DNA of 64,000 nucleotides. It comes from Escherichia phage vB_Eco_mar004NP2. The notes under the pieces are model-generated. The model was given only the letters and a program-made list of their open reading frames with translations, was not told the origin of the DNA and did no database searches. The stretch is taken from the sequence record NC_048205.1, one strand, 5' to 3'. The translations under genes and the position numbers were made by a program. Shown here piece after piece: positions 39,037 to 48,850 of the stretch (the stretch's first letter is position 1; each line of letters opens with the position of its first letter).

Positions 39037-41882
39037 AGAAAATACTAGATAGTGCTAGAAACTACTTAAAAAATAATAGCAGAATAAAAACTGCTAGTCT
39101 AATTTCCCTAGAATTACCTGGCTCTACTGGTACTAGTACTGCTTTTATTTATTTAACTGATTATTTTAGAGATGTACTATATAATGGTATTTTGTACCAG
39201 GCCGGTAAGGTTAAGTCCATTAGCACACATAAACAAAATAGAGATTTATCTATTGGCAGTCTATCTTTTACTATTACGGGTACAGCGCAGGATGAAGTAC
39301 TGAAATTAGTGCAGAATGGTGTGTCCTTTTTAGATAGAATAGTAACAATCCACCAAGCAATTATTACAGAGGATGGTTCTATTTTACCTGTAGACCCAGA
39401 CACAAATGGCCCTTTATTATACTTTAGAGGGAGAATTACCGGTGGGGGTATTAAGGACAACATTAGTACTTCTGGGGTTGGAACCTCCACAATTACTTGG
39501 AATTGTTCTAACCAATTCTATGACTTTGATAGGGTTAACGGTAGATTTACTGATGATGCTTCTCATAGAGGGCTTGAGGTTGTAGCAGGGCAATTAGTTC
39601 CATCTAACGGGGCTAAAAGACTTGAGTACCAAGAAGATTATGGGTTCTTTCATGCTAATAAAAGTATCTCTATTTTAGCAAAATATCAGGTACAGGAAGA
39701 GAGATACAAGCTAAAGTCTAAGAAAAAGCTATTTGGCCTATCTAGAAGCTATAGTCTTAAAAAGTATTATGAGACTGTTACTAAAGAAGTAGATATAGAT
39801 TTTAACCTTGCTGCTAAGTATATACCAGTAGTTTATGGTGTACAGAAAATACCAGGAATACCTATTTTTGCGGATACGGAACTACACAATCCTAATATAG
39901 TTTATGTAGTATACGCCTTTGCTGAAGGGGAGATAGACGGTTTTCTTGACTTTTCCTTCGGGGATAACCCTATGATTTGTATGGACTCTAATGATAGCTC
40001 TGCTAGAACCTGTTTCGGTGTTAAAAAAGTAGCAGGAGACACCATGCAAAGAATAGCATCAGGAATATCTTCTAGTAGTCCTTCTGTGCATGGTCAGGAA
40101 TATAAGTATAATGATGGTAATGGTGATATAAGGATTTGGACTTATCATGGAAAAGCTGATCAAACGGCTTCTGAAGTATTAGTAGACATAGCGAAAGAAC
40201 GTGGGTTCTACCTTCAGAATATGAATGGCAATGGACCGGAGTACTGGGATGCTAGGTATAAACTACTAGATACTGCATACGCAGTGGTGCGCTTCACTAT
40301 TAATGAAAATAGGACTGAGATTCCTGAAGTTAGTGCTGAAATTCAAGGTAAAAAAGTAAAAGTCTATCATTCTGATGGTAGAGTAACTGCTAATAGTACT
40401 AGTTTAAATGGTATTTGGCAAACACTTGACTACTTAACCTCCGATAGATACGGTGCTAATATTACCATTGATCAGTTCCCTCTTCAGCAATTAATACAGG
40501 AAGCAGCTATTTTAGATATTATAGATGAATCCTATCAGGTATCTTGGCAGCCATATTGGAGATACGTTGGGTGGACTGATCCACTAGCAGAAAATAGACA
40601 AATAGTACAAATGAATACTATTCTGGATACATCTGAATCAGTATTTAAAAATGTGCAAGGTTTATTAGAGTCCTACGGTGGGGCTATTAACAACTTATCT
40701 GGCCAGTACAGGATTACTGTAGAAAAATACTCTAATACTCCATTAGAGATTAATTTTCTAGATACTTACGGTGATTTGGAGCTATCAGATACTACTGGTA
40801 GAAATAAATTCAACTCAGTTCAAGCATCTATCGTAGATCCAGCCCTTAGCTGGAAAACTAATTCCATTACATTCTATAACTCCAAGTATAAGGAACAGGA
40901 CAAGAACCTAGACAAAAAATTACAATTATCTTTTGCAAATATAACTAACTACTATACTGCTAGAAGTTTTGCAGACAGAGAACTTAAGAAATCTAGGTAT
41001 TCTAGAACCCTCTCATTTTCTTTACCATATCAATTCATTGGTATTGAGCCTAATGATGCTATTGCATTTACATACGACCGTTACGGATGGGATAAGAAGT
41101 ACTTTTTAGTAGATGAAGTCGAAAACTCTAGGGAAGGAAAGATAAATGTTACTCTACAGGAGTATGGAAAAGATGTATTCATCAACTCTGATCAAGTAGA
41201 TAATAGTGGTAATGATATACCAGATATTAGTAACAACGTTCTTCCTCCTAGAGATTTTAAGTATACTCCTACACCCGGTGGCTTAGTTGGTTCTATAGGT
41301 AAAAATGGTGAGTTATCCTGGCTTCCGAGTCTAACCAATAATGTAGTTTATTACTCTATTGTGCACTCAGGCCATGCCGAACCTTACATAGTACAACAGT
41401 TAGAGACCAATCCTAACGAACGTATGATCCAAGAAATAATTGGGGAACCAGCAGGTCTGGCTATATTTGAGATAAGAGCAGTAGATATTAATGGTAGAAG
41501 AAGTTCCCCGGTGACTCTGTCTATAGAACTTAACTCTGCTAAAAACCTTAGTGTAGTATCTAATTTTAGGGTAACTAATACTGCTTCTGGAGATGTAACT
41601 GAGTTTGTTGGCCCAGATGTAAAACTAGCTTGGGATAGAATACCTGAAGAAGATATAATAGAGAGTATATTTTATACACTTGAAATACACGATTCGCAAA
41701 ATAGGATGTTAAGAAGTGTACGTATTGAAAATCAGTATACTTATGACTATTTATTAACATATAATAAGGCAGACTTTGCTCTCCAGAACAGCGGTGCTCT
41801 AGGTATAAATAGAAAATTGTATTTTCGTATTAGGGCTGAAGGGGATGATGGAGAACAGTCTGTGGAGTGGGCATCCATTTAA
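39033..41882 (+). CDS. baseplate hub/tail tip protein (pb3-like)
   Basis: 949 aa following Dit. Confidence 0.65.
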   Translation: MKKILDSARNYLKNNSRIKTASLISLELPGSTGTSTAFIYLTDYFRDVLYNGILYQAGKVKSISTHKQNRDLSIGSLSFTITGTAQDEVLKLVQNGVSFLDRIVTIHQAIITEDGSILPVDPDTNGPLLYFRGRITGGGIKDNISTSGVGTSTITWNCSNQFYDFDRVNGRFTDDASHRGLEVVAGQLVPSNGAKRLEYQEDYGFFHANKSISILAKYQVQEERYKLKSKKKLFGLSRSYSLKKYYETVTKEVDIDFNLAAKYIPVVYGVQKIPGIPIFADTELHNPNIVYVVYAFAEGEIDGFLDFSFGDNPMICMDSNDSSARTCFGVKKVAGDTMQRIASGISSSSPSVHGQEYKYNDGNGDIRIWTYHGKADQTASEVLVDIAKERGFYLQNMNGNGPEYWDARYKLLDTAYAVVRFTINENRTEIPEVSAEIQGKKVKVYHSDGRVTANSTSLNGIWQTLDYLTSDRYGANITIDQFPLQQLIQEAAILDIIDESYQVSWQPYWRYVGWTDPLAENRQIVQMNTILDTSESVFKNVQGLLESYGGAINNLSGQYRITVEKYSNTPLEINFLDTYGDLELSDTTGRNKFNSVQASIVDPALSWKTNSITFYNSKYKEQDKNLDKKLQLSFANITNYYTARSFADRELKKSRYSRTLSFSLPYQFIGIEPNDAIAFTYDRYGWDKKYFLVDEVENSREGKINVTLQEYGKDVFINSDQVDNSGNDIPDISNNVLPPRDFKYTPTPGGLVGSIGKNGELSWLPSLTNNVVYYSIVHSGHAEPYIVQQLETNPNERMIQEIIGEPAGLAIFEIRAVDINGRRSSPVTLSIELNSAKNLSVVSNFRVTNTASGDVTEFVGPDVKLAWDRIPEEDIIESIFYTLEIHDSQNRMLRSVRIENQYTYDYLLTYNKADFALQNSGALGINRKLYFRIRAEGDDGEQSVEWASI

Positions 41883-43939
41883 TGATTTCAAATAATGCAC
41901 CAGCCAAAATGGTCTTAAATAGTATAATGACTGGATATACTTTGGCTTATGTCCAGCACTCCATTTATACTGATTATGATGTTATTGGTAGATCTTTTTG
42001 GTTAAAAATAGGAGAAAGTATAGATAGACGTGATTACACCGGTATAGATACTTTCTTCGTAATGATTAATAATTTAACCCCCTCTACCTCCTATGAGATT
42101 CAGGGGGCTTTCTATGACTCAATTATTGACTCAGAGTTACTAGAAGCTAAGATTGGTATCAACCTCTCTAATGAAACTAACTTTAGAACAAAGGAAAAGC
42201 CAATAATTACTGCAGCAAGATCTGAATCAGAACCCGTTGACGTTGGTGTTGGTGCTCCAATAGTTGTTGTAGAGACTGCTGGTGAGGCTAGTTACTGCAC
42301 TATTGAATTAAAAAGTACTGCATCAGAAGATAGTGAATGGGTTAAATATTACATAGGAGCACTGGGACCTACTATCAAATTTGGTGGTGTTCCTGTTGGC
42401 AACTATAAGATCAGAATATCTGGTCAAGTTACTATGCCAGATGGTGTTACAGTTGACTCATCTGGCTATTATGAATATCCTAGCGTTTTCACTGTAGCTT
42501 ATAATTTCGTACCACCTACTGCACCTACTAACATTGACTTTAAAGCTGCACGAATCGCAGACGGTAAGGAACGATATGATGTTAGAATAGAGTGGGACTG
42601 GGAACGTGGTGCTGGTGCTAATGTCCGTGAATTTCTGGTTACTTATATAAACTCTGAAGAATATTCTAAGACTGGCTGGGCTAAAGCTCAAAAGATAAAC
42701 GTTGGTGCTGCCAGAGCCGCAACGATTATATCATTCCCATGGAAAGTTGAGCATACTTTTAAGGTATCATCAATTGCCTGGGGACCAAATAAGCAAGATA
42801 TAGCAGAATCAGCTCCTGTAACGTTTATACTTAATGAAGATACTCCTCTAGACAACAGCTTTGTCAATGAGACTGGTATTGATGTTAACTATGCCTTTAT
42901 TAAGGGCAGCATGAAAGATGGAGAAATCTGGAGACAGACATTCTTAATCGACGCAGCTACTGGTGCTATTAACATTGGTCTGCTAGATGAAGAAGGAAAA
43001 GCACCTATTTCTTTTGACCCTATAAACCGTGTTGTTAACGTTGATGGTAAAGTAATTACTAGAGATATTAATGCTGCGAACTTTATCATGACTAACTTAT
43101 CTGGTAAGGATAATCCAGCAATTTACACTCAAGGTAAATCTTGGGGTGATAATAACTCCGGTATTTGGATGGGTATGGATAATACTTCTGCCAAAGCTAA
43201 ACTAGACATTGGTAACGCCACACAATGGATACGTTATGATGGTGATGTGCTACGTATTTCTAGTGGAGTAGTTATTGGAACTCCTAATGGCGATGTAGAT
43301 CTGGGTACTGGTATGCAAGGTAAGCAAACAGTATTTGTTTATAAGTTAGCAACATCTCTACCTGCTAAACCACTAGAACAAGATTATCCGCCTCCTGGTT
43401 GGTCAAAAACTCCACCTAACCGTACAGATATGACACAAAATATCTATACCACTACAGGTACGCTTGATCCAGTTACTAATAGGTTATTAGAGGGTACTAG
43501 CTGGTCGGATGTAGTTCAGTGGAGTGGTACTGAAGGTACTATAGGGCATGATGGACAACGTGGTCCTGGGATGTATTCTGTAGGTATAGCAGGTTTAGGT
43601 GGTTGGGATGATGGACAAGCTAATTCCTTCTTTCAAAGTAACTTCGGTTCTCCACCAGTTAAATACGATGTATTAACTGAATTTAATAGTAATGCCCCCC
43701 AATCAGCATTTACAAGGCAATGGAATGGGTCTGGTTGGGTTAACCCTGCAATGGTTCTCCATGGAAACATGATTGTTAATGGGACGGTGACGGCAGATAA
43801 AATTGTAGCAGGAAATGCTTTCTTATCTCAGATCGGTGTTAACATCATTTATGATAGGAATGCTGCATTATCGGGAAACCCTGAGGCATACTACAAGATG
43901 AAGATAGACCTAAATAGTGGGTATATCCATATAAGGTAA
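41867..43939 (+). CDS. central tail fibre/straight fibre protein (pb4-like)
   Basis: 690 aa following hub gene. Confidence 0.55.
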   Translation: MGIHLMISNNAPAKMVLNSIMTGYTLAYVQHSIYTDYDVIGRSFWLKIGESIDRRDYTGIDTFFVMINNLTPSTSYEIQGAFYDSIIDSELLEAKIGINLSNETNFRTKEKPIITAARSESEPVDVGVGAPIVVVETAGEASYCTIELKSTASEDSEWVKYYIGALGPTIKFGGVPVGNYKIRISGQVTMPDGVTVDSSGYYEYPSVFTVAYNFVPPTAPTNIDFKAARIADGKERYDVRIEWDWERGAGANVREFLVTYINSEEYSKTGWAKAQKINVGAARAATIISFPWKVEHTFKVSSIAWGPNKQDIAESAPVTFILNEDTPLDNSFVNETGIDVNYAFIKGSMKDGEIWRQTFLIDAATGAINIGLLDEEGKAPISFDPINRVVNVDGKVITRDINAANFIMTNLSGKDNPAIYTQGKSWGDNNSGIWMGMDNTSAKAKLDIGNATQWIRYDGDVLRISSGVVIGTPNGDVDLGTGMQGKQTVFVYKLATSLPAKPLEQDYPPPGWSKTPPNRTDMTQNIYTTTGTLDPVTNRLLEGTSWSDVVQWSGTEGTIGHDGQRGPGMYSVGIAGLGGWDDGQANSFFQSNFGSPPVKYDVLTEFNSNAPQSAFTRQWNGSGWVNPAMVLHGNMIVNGTVTADKIVAGNAFLSQIGVNIIYDRNAALSGNPEAYYKMKIDLNSGYIHIR

Positions 43940-43945
43940 TAAATA

Positions 43946-44368
43946 ATGAGTACTGAAAATAGAGTTATAGACTTAGTAATAGATGAAAAAGTACCTTATG
44001 GTCTAATGATGCAATTCTTAGATGTTGATGATAGTACTTATCCACCTACAAATACCCCTGTTAACTTAACAGGGTATTCCCTAAGGGGTACTATAAAGGC
44101 GGGGCTTGATGAGAACGCGGAAACTTTGGCATCTTTTACTACTAAAATTATTGATGCTGCTCAAGGTGCTATAGCTATAAGTTTACCTGTAGAGGCGGTA
44201 GATAATATTGGTGAAAAAGCTACCAAAGAGAGAGATAAGTATAACCCTCGCCAACGTTTTGCAGGATACTATGATATAATTATGACACGAGATGTCATAG
44301 GATCAGCTATTAGCTCTTTTCGTATAATGGAGGGTAAAGTATTTATCAGTGATGGGGTAACTAGATAA
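43946..44368 (+). CDS. tail collar protein (140 aa)
   Basis: position. Confidence 0.4.
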
Positions 44369-46758
44369 TGGCAATAACTACTAAGATTATTGTACAACAA
44401 ATATTAAATATTGATGATACTAAAGCTACTGCTAGTAAATTTCCTAGATACACAGTAACTCTTGGAAATTCTATTAGCTCTATTACTGCTAATGAGTTAG
44501 TATCTTCTATAGAGGCTGCTGCTAAATCTGCTGCGGCTGCAAAAGATTCTGAAATAGCTGCTAAAACCTCAGAACTTAATGCTAAGAACTCTGAACAGAA
44601 AGCTGCTATTTCTGCTGGAGCTTCTGAAGCTTCTGCTACTCAGTCTGCTACCTCTGCTACTCAGTCTGCCACTTCTGCTACTAAATCCGCAGAATCAGCT
44701 GCAGCTGCAAAAACCTCTGAAACCAATGCTAAGTCTAGTGAAACAAAAGCTAAAACTAGCGAAACTAATGCAAAAGCTAGTGAAACAAAAGCTAAAACTA
44801 GCGAAACTAATGCAAAAGCTAGTGAGGATAAGGCAAAGGCTAGTGAAACCAACGCTGCTGCTTCCGCTGCTGCTGCAAAAATTAGCGAAACTAACGCTAA
44901 AATTAGTGAGACTAATGCTGCTGCGTCTGCTGCCGATTCTAAAGGTTTTAGGGATGAAGCAGAAACATTCGCTAGACAAGCTGCAACATCTGCATCCGCT
45001 GCTAAAGTATCCGAGACTAATGCAAAAGCTAGTGAGACTAAAGCCAAAGCTAGTGAGACTAAAGCCAAAGCTAGTGAGACTAACGCAGCTAGTTCCGCAA
45101 CTTCAGCTAGTCAGTCAGTAACTACTATTCAAGGCTTAAAATCAGATGTTGAGCAGCTAAAATCAGATACTCAGGCCATTAAAAACAGTGCTGTAACAGA
45201 GACAACAGCTATAAAGGCAGATGTTGCGCAGTTAAAAACAGACACACAAGGCATTAAGAATAGCGCGATAACAGAAACTACCACGCTAAAAAACCAAGCT
45301 GCTAATTCTGCAACTAGTGCTGCTAATTCTGCTACTGAAGCAGGAAAACAAGCTACTAATGCTGCTAATAGTGCTAATACTGCTAAAACTGAAGCCGATC
45401 GTTCAAAAACTGAGGCTGATAGATCAGAAGCTGCTGCTAATTCTACCCCCGACATTCAACCTCTTCCAGATGTATGGATACCGTTTAACGATTCTCTAGA
45501 TATGATCACCGGCTTTGCGCCAGGCTATAAAAAAATAACAGTCGGTGATGAGGAAATAACACTGCCCAGTGACAAGATTGTTAGCTTTACACGTGCATCA
45601 ACTGCGACATATATTAATAAATCAGGTGTATTAACTGTTGCGGGGATTGATGAACCTAGATTTGAAAAGGATGGTTTGCTCATTGAGGGGCAAAGAACTA
45701 ACTATCATCTTAACTCACTTACGCCATCTAAGTGGGGAGCTACAACAAGTGTAACTATAACAGAAAGTGGTGTTGATGAGTTTGGATTTACTTATGGGCG
45801 GTTTCAAATAAAGGACGAAAAAATTGGGACAAATACGGCAATGAATATCGCTGCGATTTCAGGAGGAAGAGGTGTCGATGTTACCGGAACTGAAAAGTAT
45901 GTTACAACATCATGTCGTGTAAAAAGCGATAGTGCTAATATACAATGTCGTATAAGATTTGAAAGATATGACGGATCCGCATATTTTTATCTAGCAGATG
46001 CATATCTTAATATAACAGATATGTCCATTAGAAAAACGGGAGTAGGGGCTGCAAGAATAACCGCCCGAGCGGAGAAAGAATCTAATGGATGGATTTATTT
46101 CGAGGTTACATATCAATCTGAAGCTATTGATAATATGGTTGGCTCTCAGATCCAAATTGCTCCACCTGTTTCACCTGGCACTTATTCTGGTGGAGAGTAC
46201 TTACAGGTAGCTACCCCTCAAGTTGAAGGCGGGGCGTGCGCTTCATCGTTTATTATTACAGAAGCGACTCCAGTAACACGGGCAAGCGATATGGTCACAT
46301 TACCAATAAAAAACAACCTTTACAATTTGCCGTTTACAGTACTTGTGGAAGCTCATAAAAACTGGAGTATAACGCCAAATGCAGCGCCACGTGTTTTTGA
46401 TACCAGCGGTCATCAAACCGGAGCGGCTATTATTCTTGCTTTCGGATCTGCCGAAGGCGATAATGATGGTTTCCCTTATTGCGATATAGGTAAATCAAAC
46501 AGAAGGGTTTACGAGAATGCAAAACTAAAAAAGATGATCATGGGAATGAGAGTAAAGAGTGATTACAATACTTGCTGTGTAAGTAATGCCAGAATATCAA
46601 GCGAAACAAAAACGGAATGGAGATACATACAATCAACGGCTACTATAAGGATTGGAGGACAAACAACTACGGGCGAACGTCATCTTTTCGGGCACGTTAG
46701 AAACTTTAGAATCTGGCATAAGGAACTAACTGATAGACAAATGAAGGAGTATGTATGA
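44368..46758 (+). CDS. L-shaped tail fibre protein A with N-terminal tandem repeats and C-terminal LamG-like domain
   Basis: 796 aa; SETNAKASETKAKT repeats; C-terminal RNFRIWHKELTDRQMKEY resembles LamG/ConA-like domain ending. Confidence 0.6.
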   Translation: MAITTKIIVQQILNIDDTKATASKFPRYTVTLGNSISSITANELVSSIEAAAKSAAAAKDSEIAAKTSELNAKNSEQKAAISAGASEASATQSATSATQSATSATKSAESAAAAKTSETNAKSSETKAKTSETNAKASETKAKTSETNAKASEDKAKASETNAAASAAAAKISETNAKISETNAAASAADSKGFRDEAETFARQAATSASAAKVSETNAKASETKAKASETKAKASETNAASSATSASQSVTTIQGLKSDVEQLKSDTQAIKNSAVTETTAIKADVAQLKTDTQGIKNSAITETTTLKNQAANSATSAANSATEAGKQATNAANSANTAKTEADRSKTEADRSEAAANSTPDIQPLPDVWIPFNDSLDMITGFAPGYKKITVGDEEITLPSDKIVSFTRASTATYINKSGVLTVAGIDEPRFEKDGLLIEGQRTNYHLNSLTPSKWGATTSVTITESGVDEFGFTYGRFQIKDEKIGTNTAMNIAAISGGRGVDVTGTEKYVTTSCRVKSDSANIQCRIRFERYDGSAYFYLADAYLNITDMSIRKTGVGAARITARAEKESNGWIYFEVTYQSEAIDNMVGSQIQIAPPVSPGTYSGGEYLQVATPQVEGGACASSFIITEATPVTRASDMVTLPIKNNLYNLPFTVLVEAHKNWSITPNAAPRVFDTSGHQTGAAIILAFGSAEGDNDGFPYCDIGKSNRRVYENAKLKKMIMGMRVKSDYNTCCVSNARISSETKTEWRYIQSTATIRIGGQTTTGERHLFGHVRNFRIWHKELTDRQMKEYV
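44560..45110 (+). repeat. tandem 21-nt (7-aa) coding repeats inside tail-fibre gene
   Basis: repeated GCTAGTGAAAC(A/T)AA(A/T)GC(T/A)AAA units. Confidence 0.8.
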
Positions 46759-47033
46759 GAGATATAATCCTAAAATTCACGGATAAATCAGCATATAAAG
46801 ATTTTCTCTTAAAAATAGAGTGGGATACTAATGAAAATTTGCAAAACCAAATAATGCTTGACGAAATTGGATATACTTATACTGAAATCTCTCCGCTAGG
46901 TGATGAGGAACCTAGATGCATCCGTAATGAAGGGTATTATATTAATGTAAGGATTCTTGATGAATCCTTTACTTACGAATCCTTCGAGCCTTTTATAGTT
47001 CAGCTAGAACAGCCTCTTAGAGTATGGGCATAA
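46755..47033 (+). CDS. hypothetical protein (92 aa)
   Basis: ORF coupled between the two fibre genes. Confidence 0.45.
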   Translation: MRDIILKFTDKSAYKDFLLKIEWDTNENLQNQIMLDEIGYTYTEISPLGDEEPRCIRNEGYYINVRILDESFTYESFEPFIVQLEQPLRVWA

Positions 47034-47042
47034 GGTTTTATA

Positions 47043-48812
47043 ATGGTAACTAAAACAGTAATTCCTACGGATATTACAAAACTTAAAAATGAGTCACTTA
47101 ATAAAAATAATAACCTGAGTGACTTAGCAGACCGTGCAGCAGCATGGCTAAATGTGCGTCCTATTGGATCTACCCCTCTTGCTGGAGATCCTGTTAGTGA
47201 CTATGATGCCGCAACTAAGCGTTGGGTGGAGAACAAACTTAATACTGGCACAGTAGGACCCACAATGAATGGTGTTATGAACTACGGGGTGGGGGATTTT
47301 CATCTTCGAGATAGCCGTGCGTATATTCAACCTTATGAGGTAGTTTCTGATGGGCAGCTTCTTAACAGGGCTGACTGGCCTGAACTTTGGGCGTATGCAC
47401 AAATGGTTGGAGCTATAGATGATTCAGTTTGGTTAGCAGATGTAGGACAACGTGGGAAATATTCTACGGGAGATGGTACCACTACTTTCCGCGTCCCAGA
47501 TCGTAATGGTGTGCAACTAAATTCAATCAAAGGGTTATTCGCTCGTGGTGACGGTGGGGGGGATGCTGGTCAAGCTGGTTCAATATCAGAAGCTGCAGCA
47601 CCCAATATTACTGGTAGTTTTCCTGGCGCTATTGCTGGTGCATATGAAGAAGCGCTTAATAGATATTCATCTAGATTTGGTCTTATTGGGGCGATTGGTG
47701 GTGAAAACGGCTTAGGTGCCGCTCCTGGAGGTGCATCTAAATCATTCGCCGTAGTTAATCCTGATAACCAATACGGATTTAGTTTTGATGCAAACTTAGC
47801 GGACCCTGTTTATGGGCGTTATGGAATAAAAGGTACTATTATTCCAAACAGCTTTATAGGTGTCTGGGTAATCCGTGCTTCTGGTGGGTTCGTGGCTGCA
47901 AAGACTTCGTGGAGTGTTATTAGTGGTGATGCTGTCAAACCTAATACTGGTACTACTGTTTATGGCGGGAGTGTACTATCTGAGTATAAAGTAGGTACTA
48001 GTAGTGAGGCTGTAAGTACACTACGAGCTAAAGCTACTATTGGTGGCACCTACTCTACTGAACTACTAATAGACAATAAATCTACCGGTAAATCGAATTC
48101 CGCCCAGCTTGTAGATAATGGGGATTTTGTAACGGATCGTTTTAAAGCTAGATTAGTTACTGGCATGGCGTGGTCTCAGACTGGCTGGGTACAAGGTACT
48201 CTTTCTCAGAACGAGGTCAATATAGGTAGTACATTTAACTTTAATAGTATATTGAGCGGTTCCCAGTCTTCTTCCGCAGGGTATAAGACATCTGCACATT
48301 TTGGATTAATTCATAATGACTTAGGCTCATTTGCAGATTCTTGTTGGCAGGTAGCGGGAGATGATGATAATAAATTTGGTGTGCGTTTAAAAATTCAGCC
48401 GAATAATAATAGTATTTATTTTTATTCTTGGTGGCCAGGTGCTTCAGCAACCTATACTTTGCAATTAAATGCTGTATCTGATTCTCGCTTAAAGCATGAT
48501 ATTAAGGCTATAGACGCAACTAAGTCCATCGAGGTATTAAAAGGATTAGAATTCCAATCCTTTGTATATAATAACGATGAAAAATCTCGTGTCCGACGTG
48601 GGGTTATTGCTCAGCAAGTAGAGACTATAGAACCACTTTATGTAAAAACTAGAAAATTTTATAATGATGACGGAATAGAGCAGGAGCAAAAGGAATTAGA
48701 TACAACTCCAATGCTTCTTGACACTATGCATGTTGTGCAAGATCTTATTAAACGGATTGAAGATCTAGAGAAAGAGCTTGAGCAATTAAAGGTACAATTA
48801 GTATCACAATAA
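47043..48812 (+). CDS. tail fibre protein B with C-terminal intramolecular chaperone (S74-type autoproteolytic domain)
   Basis: 589 aa; SDSRLKHDI motif and C-terminal coiled coil. Confidence 0.65.
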   Translation: MVTKTVIPTDITKLKNESLNKNNNLSDLADRAAAWLNVRPIGSTPLAGDPVSDYDAATKRWVENKLNTGTVGPTMNGVMNYGVGDFHLRDSRAYIQPYEVVSDGQLLNRADWPELWAYAQMVGAIDDSVWLADVGQRGKYSTGDGTTTFRVPDRNGVQLNSIKGLFARGDGGGDAGQAGSISEAAAPNITGSFPGAIAGAYEEALNRYSSRFGLIGAIGGENGLGAAPGGASKSFAVVNPDNQYGFSFDANLADPVYGRYGIKGTIIPNSFIGVWVIRASGGFVAAKTSWSVISGDAVKPNTGTTVYGGSVLSEYKVGTSSEAVSTLRAKATIGGTYSTELLIDNKSTGKSNSAQLVDNGDFVTDRFKARLVTGMAWSQTGWVQGTLSQNEVNIGSTFNFNSILSGSQSSSAGYKTSAHFGLIHNDLGSFADSCWQVAGDDDNKFGVRLKIQPNNNSIYFYSWWPGASATYTLQLNAVSDSRLKHDIKAIDATKSIEVLKGLEFQSFVYNNDEKSRVRRGVIAQQVETIEPLYVKTRKFYNDDGIEQEQKELDTTPMLLDTMHVVQDLIKRIEDLEKELEQLKVQLVSQ

Positions 48813-48817
48813 AAGAA

Positions 48818-48850
48818 AACCCCAGTGGACAAAATCCACTGGGGTTTATT
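48818..48850. terminator. bidirectional rho-independent terminator
   Basis: CCCCAGTGGA-CAAAAT-TCCACTGGGG with T-tract on plus and A-tract upstream. Confidence 0.75.

Follow-up and report, generated by a model that had tools for sequence, protein, structure and literature searches.

A 4.4-kb lateral-fibre locus was analysed in a stretch of 64,000 nucleotides (nt) from a T5-like phage. This whole stretch is called here the window, and the fibre coordinates are given on its numbering. The last three genes of the fibre operon are co-directional, all of them on the plus strand, and encode fibre A (796 amino acids, aa; 44368-46758), a 92-aa protein located between both fibre genes (46755-47033) and fibre B (589 aa; 47043-48812). 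The start of the 92-aa open reading frame (ORF) overlaps the stop codon of fibre A as ATGA, with the sequence AAGGAG upstream, and a gap of 9 nt separates its stop codon from the start of fibre B. The preliminary description of this DNA had proposed a two-fibre system beginning at position 45450. Both fibre genes are present, but the third gene of the interval was left out of that picture, and position 45450 falls within the gene of fibre A, where the coiled-coil shaft ends, whereas this gene starts at 44368.

The gene upstream of fibre A (43946..44368, plus strand) encodes the 140-aa collar protein LtfC (Pfam PF23926, E 8.4e-15), which anchors the lateral fibres at the tail tip. Its role is known from the cryo-electron microscopy (cryo-EM) structure of phage DT57C (PMC10713586). 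The LtfC of the window is 84% identical to that of DT57C and 100% identical to gp21 of Bas32 IrisVonRoten (PMC11990801, PMC8594841), a phage in which the four genes have the same order and sizes (140/796/92/574-589 aa). There, LtfC (gp21) is followed by Gp22, a proximal fibre whose C-terminal domain is lectin-like, by gp23, and by Gp24, a distal fibre with two receptor-binding domains (RBDs) and an intramolecular chaperone (IMC). The same succession of ltfC, a lectin-ended proximal fibre, a 92-aa gene and a T-shaped fibre with an IMC was found in the window, and the identities to the Bas32 proteins are 93.5% for fibre A, 92.4% for the 92-aa protein and 85.3% for fibre B. At the nucleotide level, the locus is 92.7% identical to that of Bas32 and even closer to those of the Salmonella phages PMBT29 (99.9%) and SPLA5b (99.8%). 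It is also 99.1% identical, with 94% covered, to the record of Escherichia phage vB_Eco_mar004NP2, with which the window has the fibre B sequence exactly in common.

Regarding this data, it is likely that these are the last three genes of a Tequintavirus lateral-tail-fibre operon of the Bas32 IrisVonRoten type, with the role in joint formation and adsorption that is proposed below. The locus is real, and it is already present in GenBank and in print for the near-identical Bas32. Some novelty is left in the 92-aa protein and in the seemingly portable joint to which it could belong.

Fibre A and its lectin-type end

Fibre A begins with a T5-type N-terminal anchor for LtfC. Its residues 1-215 match aa 1-230 of DT57C LtfA (PDB 8hqz_d, E 1.5e-36), with 55% identity over aa 1-202. 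In the cryo-EM structure of DT57C, the N-terminal part of LtfA threads the LtfC ring and a trimerising helix begins at T40 (PMC10713586). By homology to LtfA, aa 1-40 of fibre A (44368..44487, plus strand) are assigned as the N-terminal strands threading into this ring. The following region, aa ~41-360 (44488..45447, plus strand), can be recognised as a heptad-repeat coiled-coil shaft because of its richness in Ala, Ser, Thr and Lys (27%, 16%, 14% and 11%, respectively) and of the 21-nt tandem repeats, each equivalent to a heptad of 7 aa, found at 44623-45395. Relatives of fibre A range from 557 to 796 aa, with shafts of variable length, and nucleotide matches break within the repeat region, which suggests a shaft-length polymorphism through the gain or loss of repeats.

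The C-terminal module starts with a neck (aa 361-437; 45448..45678, plus strand), which is its best conserved part, with a mean column entropy of 0.41 and 80% identity among 116 close homologues. The neck was modelled by AlphaFold2 (AF2) with low confidence as a monomer. A Pfam scan of full-length fibre A gave no match at E<=0.1, and no S74 match was found in this protein with Pfam.

Behind the neck, aa 438-639 (45679..46284, plus strand) correspond to a beta-sandwich similar to the head-spike fibre of RcGTA and to carbohydrate-binding modules (CBMs) of families 4/22. They match the NCBIfam entry NF048003 'GTA_spike_fiber' with 58 bits, the cut-off being 36. Moreover, aa 405-654 are homologous to the RcGTA head-spike fibre Rcc01080, with E values of 5.4e-9 for the single sequence and 2e-51 for the family profile, and the same profile reaches the Pseudomonas phage baseplate proteins E217 gp45 and Pa193 gp46 at ~1e-22. 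Fold searches placed this penultimate domain nearest to CBM4/22. A first AF2 run covered 436 aa with 18 sequences, all of them at least 63% identical, and Foldseek recovered with its model two phage baseplate proteins and CBM4, and thereafter mostly antibody noise. Rcc01080 (GhsB; PDB 6tb9; PMC7296036, PMC10218006) has been shown experimentally to bind capsular polysaccharide (PMC10218006). It is a monomeric head decoration of 325 aa whose N-terminal peptide attaches to a pentameric base, whereas in fibre A the homologous domain belongs to the end region of a trimeric tail fibre and precedes a further domain, described below. The CBM-like domain is also the variable part of the C-terminal module (entropy 0.94, compared with 0.41 for the neck and 0.57 for the last domain), and, if fibre A has a variable glycan site, this domain could be the most likely place for it.

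The last domain (aa ~645-796; 46300..46755, plus strand) is a LamG/pentraxin-like beta-sandwich (Laminin_G_3, ConA-like) that carries NFRIWHKELTDRQMKEY at aa 779-795 (nt 46702-46752). The preliminary description had noted a LamG-like end on fibre A, and this proposal was borne out by homology reached through relatives, by structure prediction and by fold comparison. The Laminin_G_3 signal was seen with the C-terminal piece at relaxed thresholds, not with full-length fibre A. It is the lone Pfam match of this piece (E 0.0011, aa 744-791), it includes NFRIWHKELTDRQMKEY, and its alignment covers profile positions 103-149 of 151, that is, the last third. A phmmer search with aa 617-796 against 1.84 billion cluster representatives gave 129 homologues. 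Laminin_G_3 was matched at E<=1e-3 by 38 of 71 phmmer homologues, and once the homologues were trimmed to the segment corresponding to the window, it was the top match in all cases. In one of them (P0145, E 2.4e-22 to the window), the trimmed segment reached 49.9 bits over profile positions 8-151, which corresponds to homology over the whole domain. Furthermore, the profile of this LamG family matched 4qvs in the PDB (8.8e-22), together with an arabinanase CBM, tetanus HcN, pentraxins and pappalysin.

A second AF2 run with the 180 residues of aa 617-796 and 71 diverse homologues produced a model with a pLDDT of 86.9 and a pTM of 0.80. Foldseek found 137 PDB matches to this model at E<=1e-3, and the jelly roll superposes on SAP and CRP with template modelling (TM) scores of 0.61-0.63 and on PAPP-A with 0.64-0.68. 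Further matches were the laminin G (LG) domains of agrin, SHBG and Gas6, botulinum HcN and a sialidase CBM40. The domain of the Bas32 proximal fibre has been called 'galectin-like' (PMC11990801), whereas the fold searches made here point to pentraxin/LG for the last domain and to CBM4/22 for the preceding one. Since no galectin appeared among the top 50 Foldseek matches of the last domain, 'LamG/pentraxin-like' fits better than the published term, and it should be considered that the LamG, pentraxin and galectin folds all belong to the ConA-like superfamily. Judged from homology and from the model, the LamG assignment is correct at the fold and superfamily level, and carbohydrate binding is a putative function of the domain. 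Both the LamG domain and the neck are conserved across phages of different hosts.

Fibre B and the comparison with DT57C

Fibre B opens with a conserved docking peptide, MVTKTVIPTDITKLK (aa 1-20; 47043..47102, plus strand). It continues with a conserved scaffold (aa 21-300; 47103..47942, plus strand) that holds a hypervariable insert at aa ~181-260, published in Bas32 as the 'Gp12-like RBD1', and with a distal tip (aa 301-478; 47943..48476, plus strand), the published 'T5-like RBD2'. It ends in a Peptidase_S74 intramolecular chaperone of 13.0 kDa (PF13884; aa 479-589; 48477..48812, plus strand). Column entropies over 115 homologues follow this division: 0.2-0.5 in the scaffold at aa 41-160, up to 2.55 with 14-40% gaps in the indel-rich insert of aa 181-260, and 1.0-1.6 in the moderately variable distal region (aa 301-480). 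The strip of aa 281-300 and the chaperone are conserved. Concerning Bas32, the sole region in which fibre B differs from Gp24 is aa ~150-268 (nt 47490-47850), where the window has another hypervariable RBD1 insert, while RBD2 and the IMC are identical. It appears that the RBD1 insert has been swapped as a cassette relative to Gp24. Both the entropy profile and this region of difference agree with the published model of Gp24 as a T-shaped fibre with a Gp12-like RBD1, a T5-like RBD2 and an IMC (PMC11990801).

The motif SDSRLKHDI, which had been attributed to a self-cleaving chaperone in the preliminary description, is found at aa 479-487 (nt 48477-48503), and the assignment to this chaperone family holds, with self-cleavage as a prediction. 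Peptidase_S74 (PF13884) matches aa 479-531 with an E value of 3.4e-12 and 46.9 bits, the cut-off being 22. The Ser...Lys(+5) pair is contained in S-D-S-R-L-K, an alignment of 26 homologues (54-87% identity) shows no variation at S479, D480 and K484, and the family profile of fibre B matches in the PDB the S74-type chaperones of S16 (6f45), MYRF (7dc3) and phi29 gp12 (3gud). In T5 pb1, the chain is cut between Thr1263 and Ser1264, with Lys1269 as the activator of the serine, and the O-antigen-binding tip stays covered by the chaperone until the latter is released (PMC4690869). By analogy, fibre B would be cut between Val478 and Ser479 by a Ser479/Lys484 dyad, giving predicted products of 50.6 and 13.0 kDa. 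T5 pb1 also shares with the fibres of the window its genome position, the anchoring at the collar and a C-terminal S74 domain with a Ser...Lys(+5) dyad that is cut off to expose a glycan-binding tip. However, it is one polypeptide of 1396 aa, whereas the window encodes two polypeptides and a small protein, and the first of these polypeptides bears extra lectin-type domains.

The preliminary description had likened the system to that of DT57C. According to this explanation, the locus would encode a branched fibre in which fibre A is LtfA and fibre B is LtfB, with one O-antigen-specific receptor domain each. The resemblance to LtfA and LtfB of DT57C and DT571/2 (PMC4728585, PMC10713586; PDB 8hqz) is real in several respects. 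In both systems two fibre genes follow ltfC, the first fibre is anchored in the same way, as the identity of its first 202 residues to LtfA indicates, and fibre B is homologous to the T-shaped, S74-bearing receptor module, aligning with LtfB aa 206-528 at 57% identity (E 6e-119). Nevertheless, the better match of fibre B is the distal half of LtfA and not LtfB (its aa 14-582 align with LtfA aa 526-1072, E 6e-135), and an alignment with the distal parts of both LtfA and LtfB means that it is the receptor module common to both DT57C fibres. In DT57C, LtfA combines this module with the anchor in one chain, and LtfB is a second copy that attaches by an interface of the phiEco32 gp14/gp15 type. The dock proposed for it is the phiEco32-gp14-like region of LtfA (aa 223-471), reached by the gp15-like N-terminal 45 residues of LtfB (PMC4728585). 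Fibre A has no counterpart of this region, since beyond aa 1-202 solely the low-complexity shaft aligns with LtfA. Likewise, the start of fibre B, MVTKTVIPTDITKLK, does not align with that of LtfB, MSRPLMPKSGAMAPYV, and is unrelated to its gp15-like MSRPLMPKSG type, both being separate adaptor classes. Moreover, LtfA and LtfB both end in S74 domains (PMC4728585), but here fibre B alone has one. Finally, the anchor fibre of the window ends in lectin-type domains, there is a single T-shaped fibre with another peptide, and the 92-aa gene stands between the fibre genes, a gene that DT57C lacks in this place. As the locus lacks three features that define the DT57C type, the proper reference is the Bas32 type, and a DT57C-type branched fibre seems very improbable. 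In particular, the assignment of fibres A and B as orthologues of LtfA and LtfB was rejected on the N-termini, the missing gp14-like dock and the alignments of fibre B to both DT57C proteins.

The 92-aa protein and the proposed joint between the fibres

The protein encoded between both fibres is acidic (11.1 kDa, isoelectric point 4.3) and belongs to phrog_1361, a family of unknown function. Searches of Pfam, NCBIfam and the PDB, profile search included, gave no match. Among 5.8 billion proteins, 244 homologues were found with 33-93% identity, all of them annotated as 'hypothetical' and confined to phages and prophages of Escherichia, Salmonella and Shigella, and the gene was found in 204 phage records that span several families. 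A spurious ORF overlapping fibre A was considered and ruled out by these homologues, by the fixed position of the gene and by its Shine-Dalgarno sequence and ATGA coupling. The paper on Bas32 leaves the counterpart of this protein, gp23, unexplained (PMC11990801).

The surroundings of the gene were compared in 62 IMG/VR viral loci fetched via the 92-aa protein. The upstream ORF ends in the LamG signature (...GH[IV]RN[FL]R[IV]W...) in 60 of them, the other two being unresolved by the ORF filter. A distal fibre follows the 92-aa gene in only 11 of the 62 loci, and ten of these fibres begin 13-16 nt after the gene with the N-terminus M-x-T-x-T-x-IP-x-DI-x-x-LK. In 45 loci, corresponding to lambdoid prophages, there is no distal fibre, and a 97-aa membrane protein is encoded after the 92-aa gene instead. 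It seems, then, that the LamG-ended fibre and the 92-aa protein could be an obligate pair, and that the distal fibre may be an optional add-on that docks by its N-terminal peptide.

The same C-terminal module, 63-86% identical and with the same 92-aa gene downstream, is found in the side fibres of lambdoid prophages, Queuovirinae, Drexlerviridae and Dhillonvirus (for example, Lambda_ev203 and KurtStettler). The virulent siphoviruses among them also share the docking peptide on the distal fibre. In contrast to fibre A, these side fibres have other N-terminal anchors (lambda Stf-type PF08400 or P2-type PF12571), and most lambdoid prophages lack the distal fibre. The MVTKTVIPTDITKLK-type peptide is present in 81 phage records and is located just downstream of the 92-aa gene where both are listed. 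Its conservation extends to distal fibres with little else in common; KurtStettler gp24, for instance, matches fibre B in 17 of the first 30 residues and in almost nothing beyond. Among 120 T-shaped fibres, at least five classes of N-terminal adaptor were distinguished: MPRLIFKNNF (40 fibres), MVTKTVIPTDITKLK (26), the LtfB/phiEco32-gp15 type MSRELMPKSG (10), direct fusions of the LtfA type and fusions of the lambda Stf type.

Two further observations were made in these loci. The 97-aa protein of the lambdoid prophages is hydrophobic and conserved and starts with MDISPLLHALCAVAAQ (loci L013-L060; in Lambda_ev203, L004:5292-5585). In Lambda_ev203, its gene is followed by the sitABCD manganese-transporter cargo. 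This gene could be a moron or an exclusion gene. On the other hand, in the Vequintavirus pangalan (gp174-gp175, L006:562-5333), the LamG-like IKDIRVWNSALTDTQL closes a rV5-type tail fibre of 1479 aa, and the next gene encodes a homologue of the 92-aa protein with 110 aa and 33% identity, so the pairing of a LamG end with this small protein reaches the large myoviruses.

Concerning its function, small tail-fibre assembly genes lie downstream of fibre genes in other phages, such as lambda tfa, T4 gp38 and P2 G. As fibre A lacks an intramolecular chaperone, the translationally coupled 92-aa gene is most simply explained, by analogy with these, as encoding an assembly factor, and the protein may alternatively be a component of the joint. 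A stricter version of the latter idea would make it a physical adaptor of the virion that bridges fibres A and B, and not a non-structural chaperone of the fibre A tip. The location of the gene between the fibre genes, 9 nt before fibre B, and the divergence of the protein in step with the LamG end and the docking peptide speak for a bridge. However, the gene is kept in the 45 loci that have no distal fibre to be bridged, its position, size and coupling resemble those of tfa, gp38 and G, and fibre A has no chaperone of its own. In addition, the 92-aa protein was in none of the virion proteomes reviewed, the virion gel of phage SIA3lw covering proteins above ~19 kDa. An adaptor of this kind is possible, but it is not the explanation that we favour.

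A wider proposal is that the neck and LamG domain, the 92-aa protein and the 16-residue peptide constitute a portable plug-and-socket joint by which distal fibres are swapped among unrelated families (Markadamsvirinae, Queuovirinae, Drexlerviridae, Dhillonvirus, lambdoid prophages and perhaps Vequintavirinae). The 92-aa protein would then represent a new class of adaptor or chaperone, and the LamG domain would be lectin and socket at once. This proposal is tentative and, at present, rather speculative. Should the joint be a universal connector, it would offer a practical handle to swap receptor fibres between phage families.

Proposed role in adsorption

In the Bas32-type reading, fibre A would be the proximal subunit, its first ~40 residues threading the LtfC collar and its ~320-residue heptad-repeat coiled coil serving as the shaft, and each of its chains would end in the neck and the two lectin-type beta-sandwiches, one CBM4/22-like and the other LamG/pentraxin-like. 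The coupled 92-aa protein would act as an assembly factor or as part of the joint. Fibre B would be the distal T-shaped subunit, plugged onto the tip of fibre A by its 16-residue N-terminal peptide, and its body would present the RBD1 insert and the RBD2 distal tip. The S74 chaperone would drive the folding of the trimer and then remove itself by a cut in front of Ser479, and the tip would thereby be exposed, as it is in T5 pb1. The fibres could bind surface glycans reversibly, speeding adsorption. With a matching O-antigen, the phage would cross the O-antigen layer, and pb5 would then bind the terminal receptor, which is BtuB in SPLA5b.

Several points weigh against this interpretation. The attachment of fibre B to fibre A is deduced indirectly, and the LamG assignment depends on transitive homology and on a monomer model; in the window itself, Laminin_G_3 scores 19.5 bits, below the gathering cut-off of 27.6. 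The first AF2 model had an overall pLDDT of 49.9 and was confident solely at residues 90-256. The Gp12 likeness of RBD1 was not reproduced, as T4 gp12 and gp37 are absent from the PDB matches of the fibre B family profile, and the lone signal in that direction is a weak Pfam Collar match (E 0.009). Furthermore, LPS and O-antigen genes of S. Typhimurium ST4/74 are resistance factors to SPLA5b, and the plaques on ΔrfaL are clearer (PMC10949491). Given the 99.8% identity of the SPLA5b locus, this indicates that the fibres do not use that O-antigen productively; it is a barrier to SPLA5b. Lastly, an O-antigen-specific site would not usually be as conserved as the neck and the LamG domain are, and a structural role would explain this conservation just as well.

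This last point leads to the explanation that the CBM-like and LamG module takes no part in receptor binding and, together with the 92-aa protein, serves solely as the socket of a joint in which the distal fibre is held. In favour of it, the neck and LamG domain are conserved (0.41 and 0.57) while RBD1 of fibre B is hypervariable, and the module, the 92-aa gene and the distal-fibre peptide travel together in Markadamsvirinae, Queuovirinae, Drexlerviridae and Dhillonvirus. However, the 45 lambdoid loci keep the module and the 92-aa gene without any distal fibre, so that the side fibre of these prophages ends freely in the module. Moreover, one domain of the module has a homologue with demonstrated capsule binding, both folds are typical of glycan binders, and the CBM-like domain is clearly more variable (0.94) than the rest. 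A pure socket is therefore unlikely, and the neck and LamG domain may be socket, lectin or both.

Regarding the receptors, BtuB was found to be essential for SPLA5b by transposon sequencing and knockouts (PMC10949491). Bas32 is the sole Markadamsvirinae phage of the BASEL collection that plaques on K-12 with a restored O16 antigen (PMC8594841), and Bas32 and the window differ in RBD1. Mass spectrometry has identified both fibre types in the virions of SIA3lw, a phage whose fibre locus is organised in the same way. It is plausible that glycans are bound at more than one site, as has also been proposed for the Bas32 locus (PMC11990801). The two O-antigen specificities of the preliminary description are a reasonable hypothesis, but the idea of one specificity per fibre is too simple, because fibre B carries two variable regions (RBD1, aa ~181-260, and RBD2, aa ~301-478). 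Thus, the system may hold three or four candidate glycan sites, namely the CBM-like domain, the LamG domain, RBD1 and RBD2.

Lateral fibres decide which smooth, O-antigen-bearing strains of Escherichia and Salmonella can be reached by a T5-like phage, so a domain map of these proteins matters for the prediction of host range and for the engineering of therapeutic phages. The map presented here separates the conserved scaffold from the exchangeable RBD1 insert, RBD2 and CBM-like domain, and corrects the analogy with DT57C.

Concerning the neighbouring genes, pb4 (41867-43939), with four PB4 Pfam domains, is located upstream of ltfC. At the other end, a bidirectional intrinsic terminator (48817..48847) with T-runs on both strands and a perfect GC-rich hairpin of 13-14 base pairs separates the late fibre operon from the convergent dut gene; the convergent neighbours beyond it encode dUTPase and a flap endonuclease (exonuclease).

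Some features of the database records should also be mentioned. The PMBT29 record (L001:3581-4001) has a 2-nt (AG) deletion within ltfC relative to the window, from which two annotated ORFs result, whereas ltfC of the window (43946-44368) is intact and identical to that of Bas32. A similar frameshift in the T5 reference sequence has been described as erroneous (PMC10713586). In addition, the GenBank records MG065692 (Campylobacter phage C13) and OR847733 (Listeria phage LM 4-11-1) contain T5-like or coliphage fibre sequences nearly identical to the locus of the window, and their Campylobacter and Listeria host labels are probably due to contamination or mislabelling.

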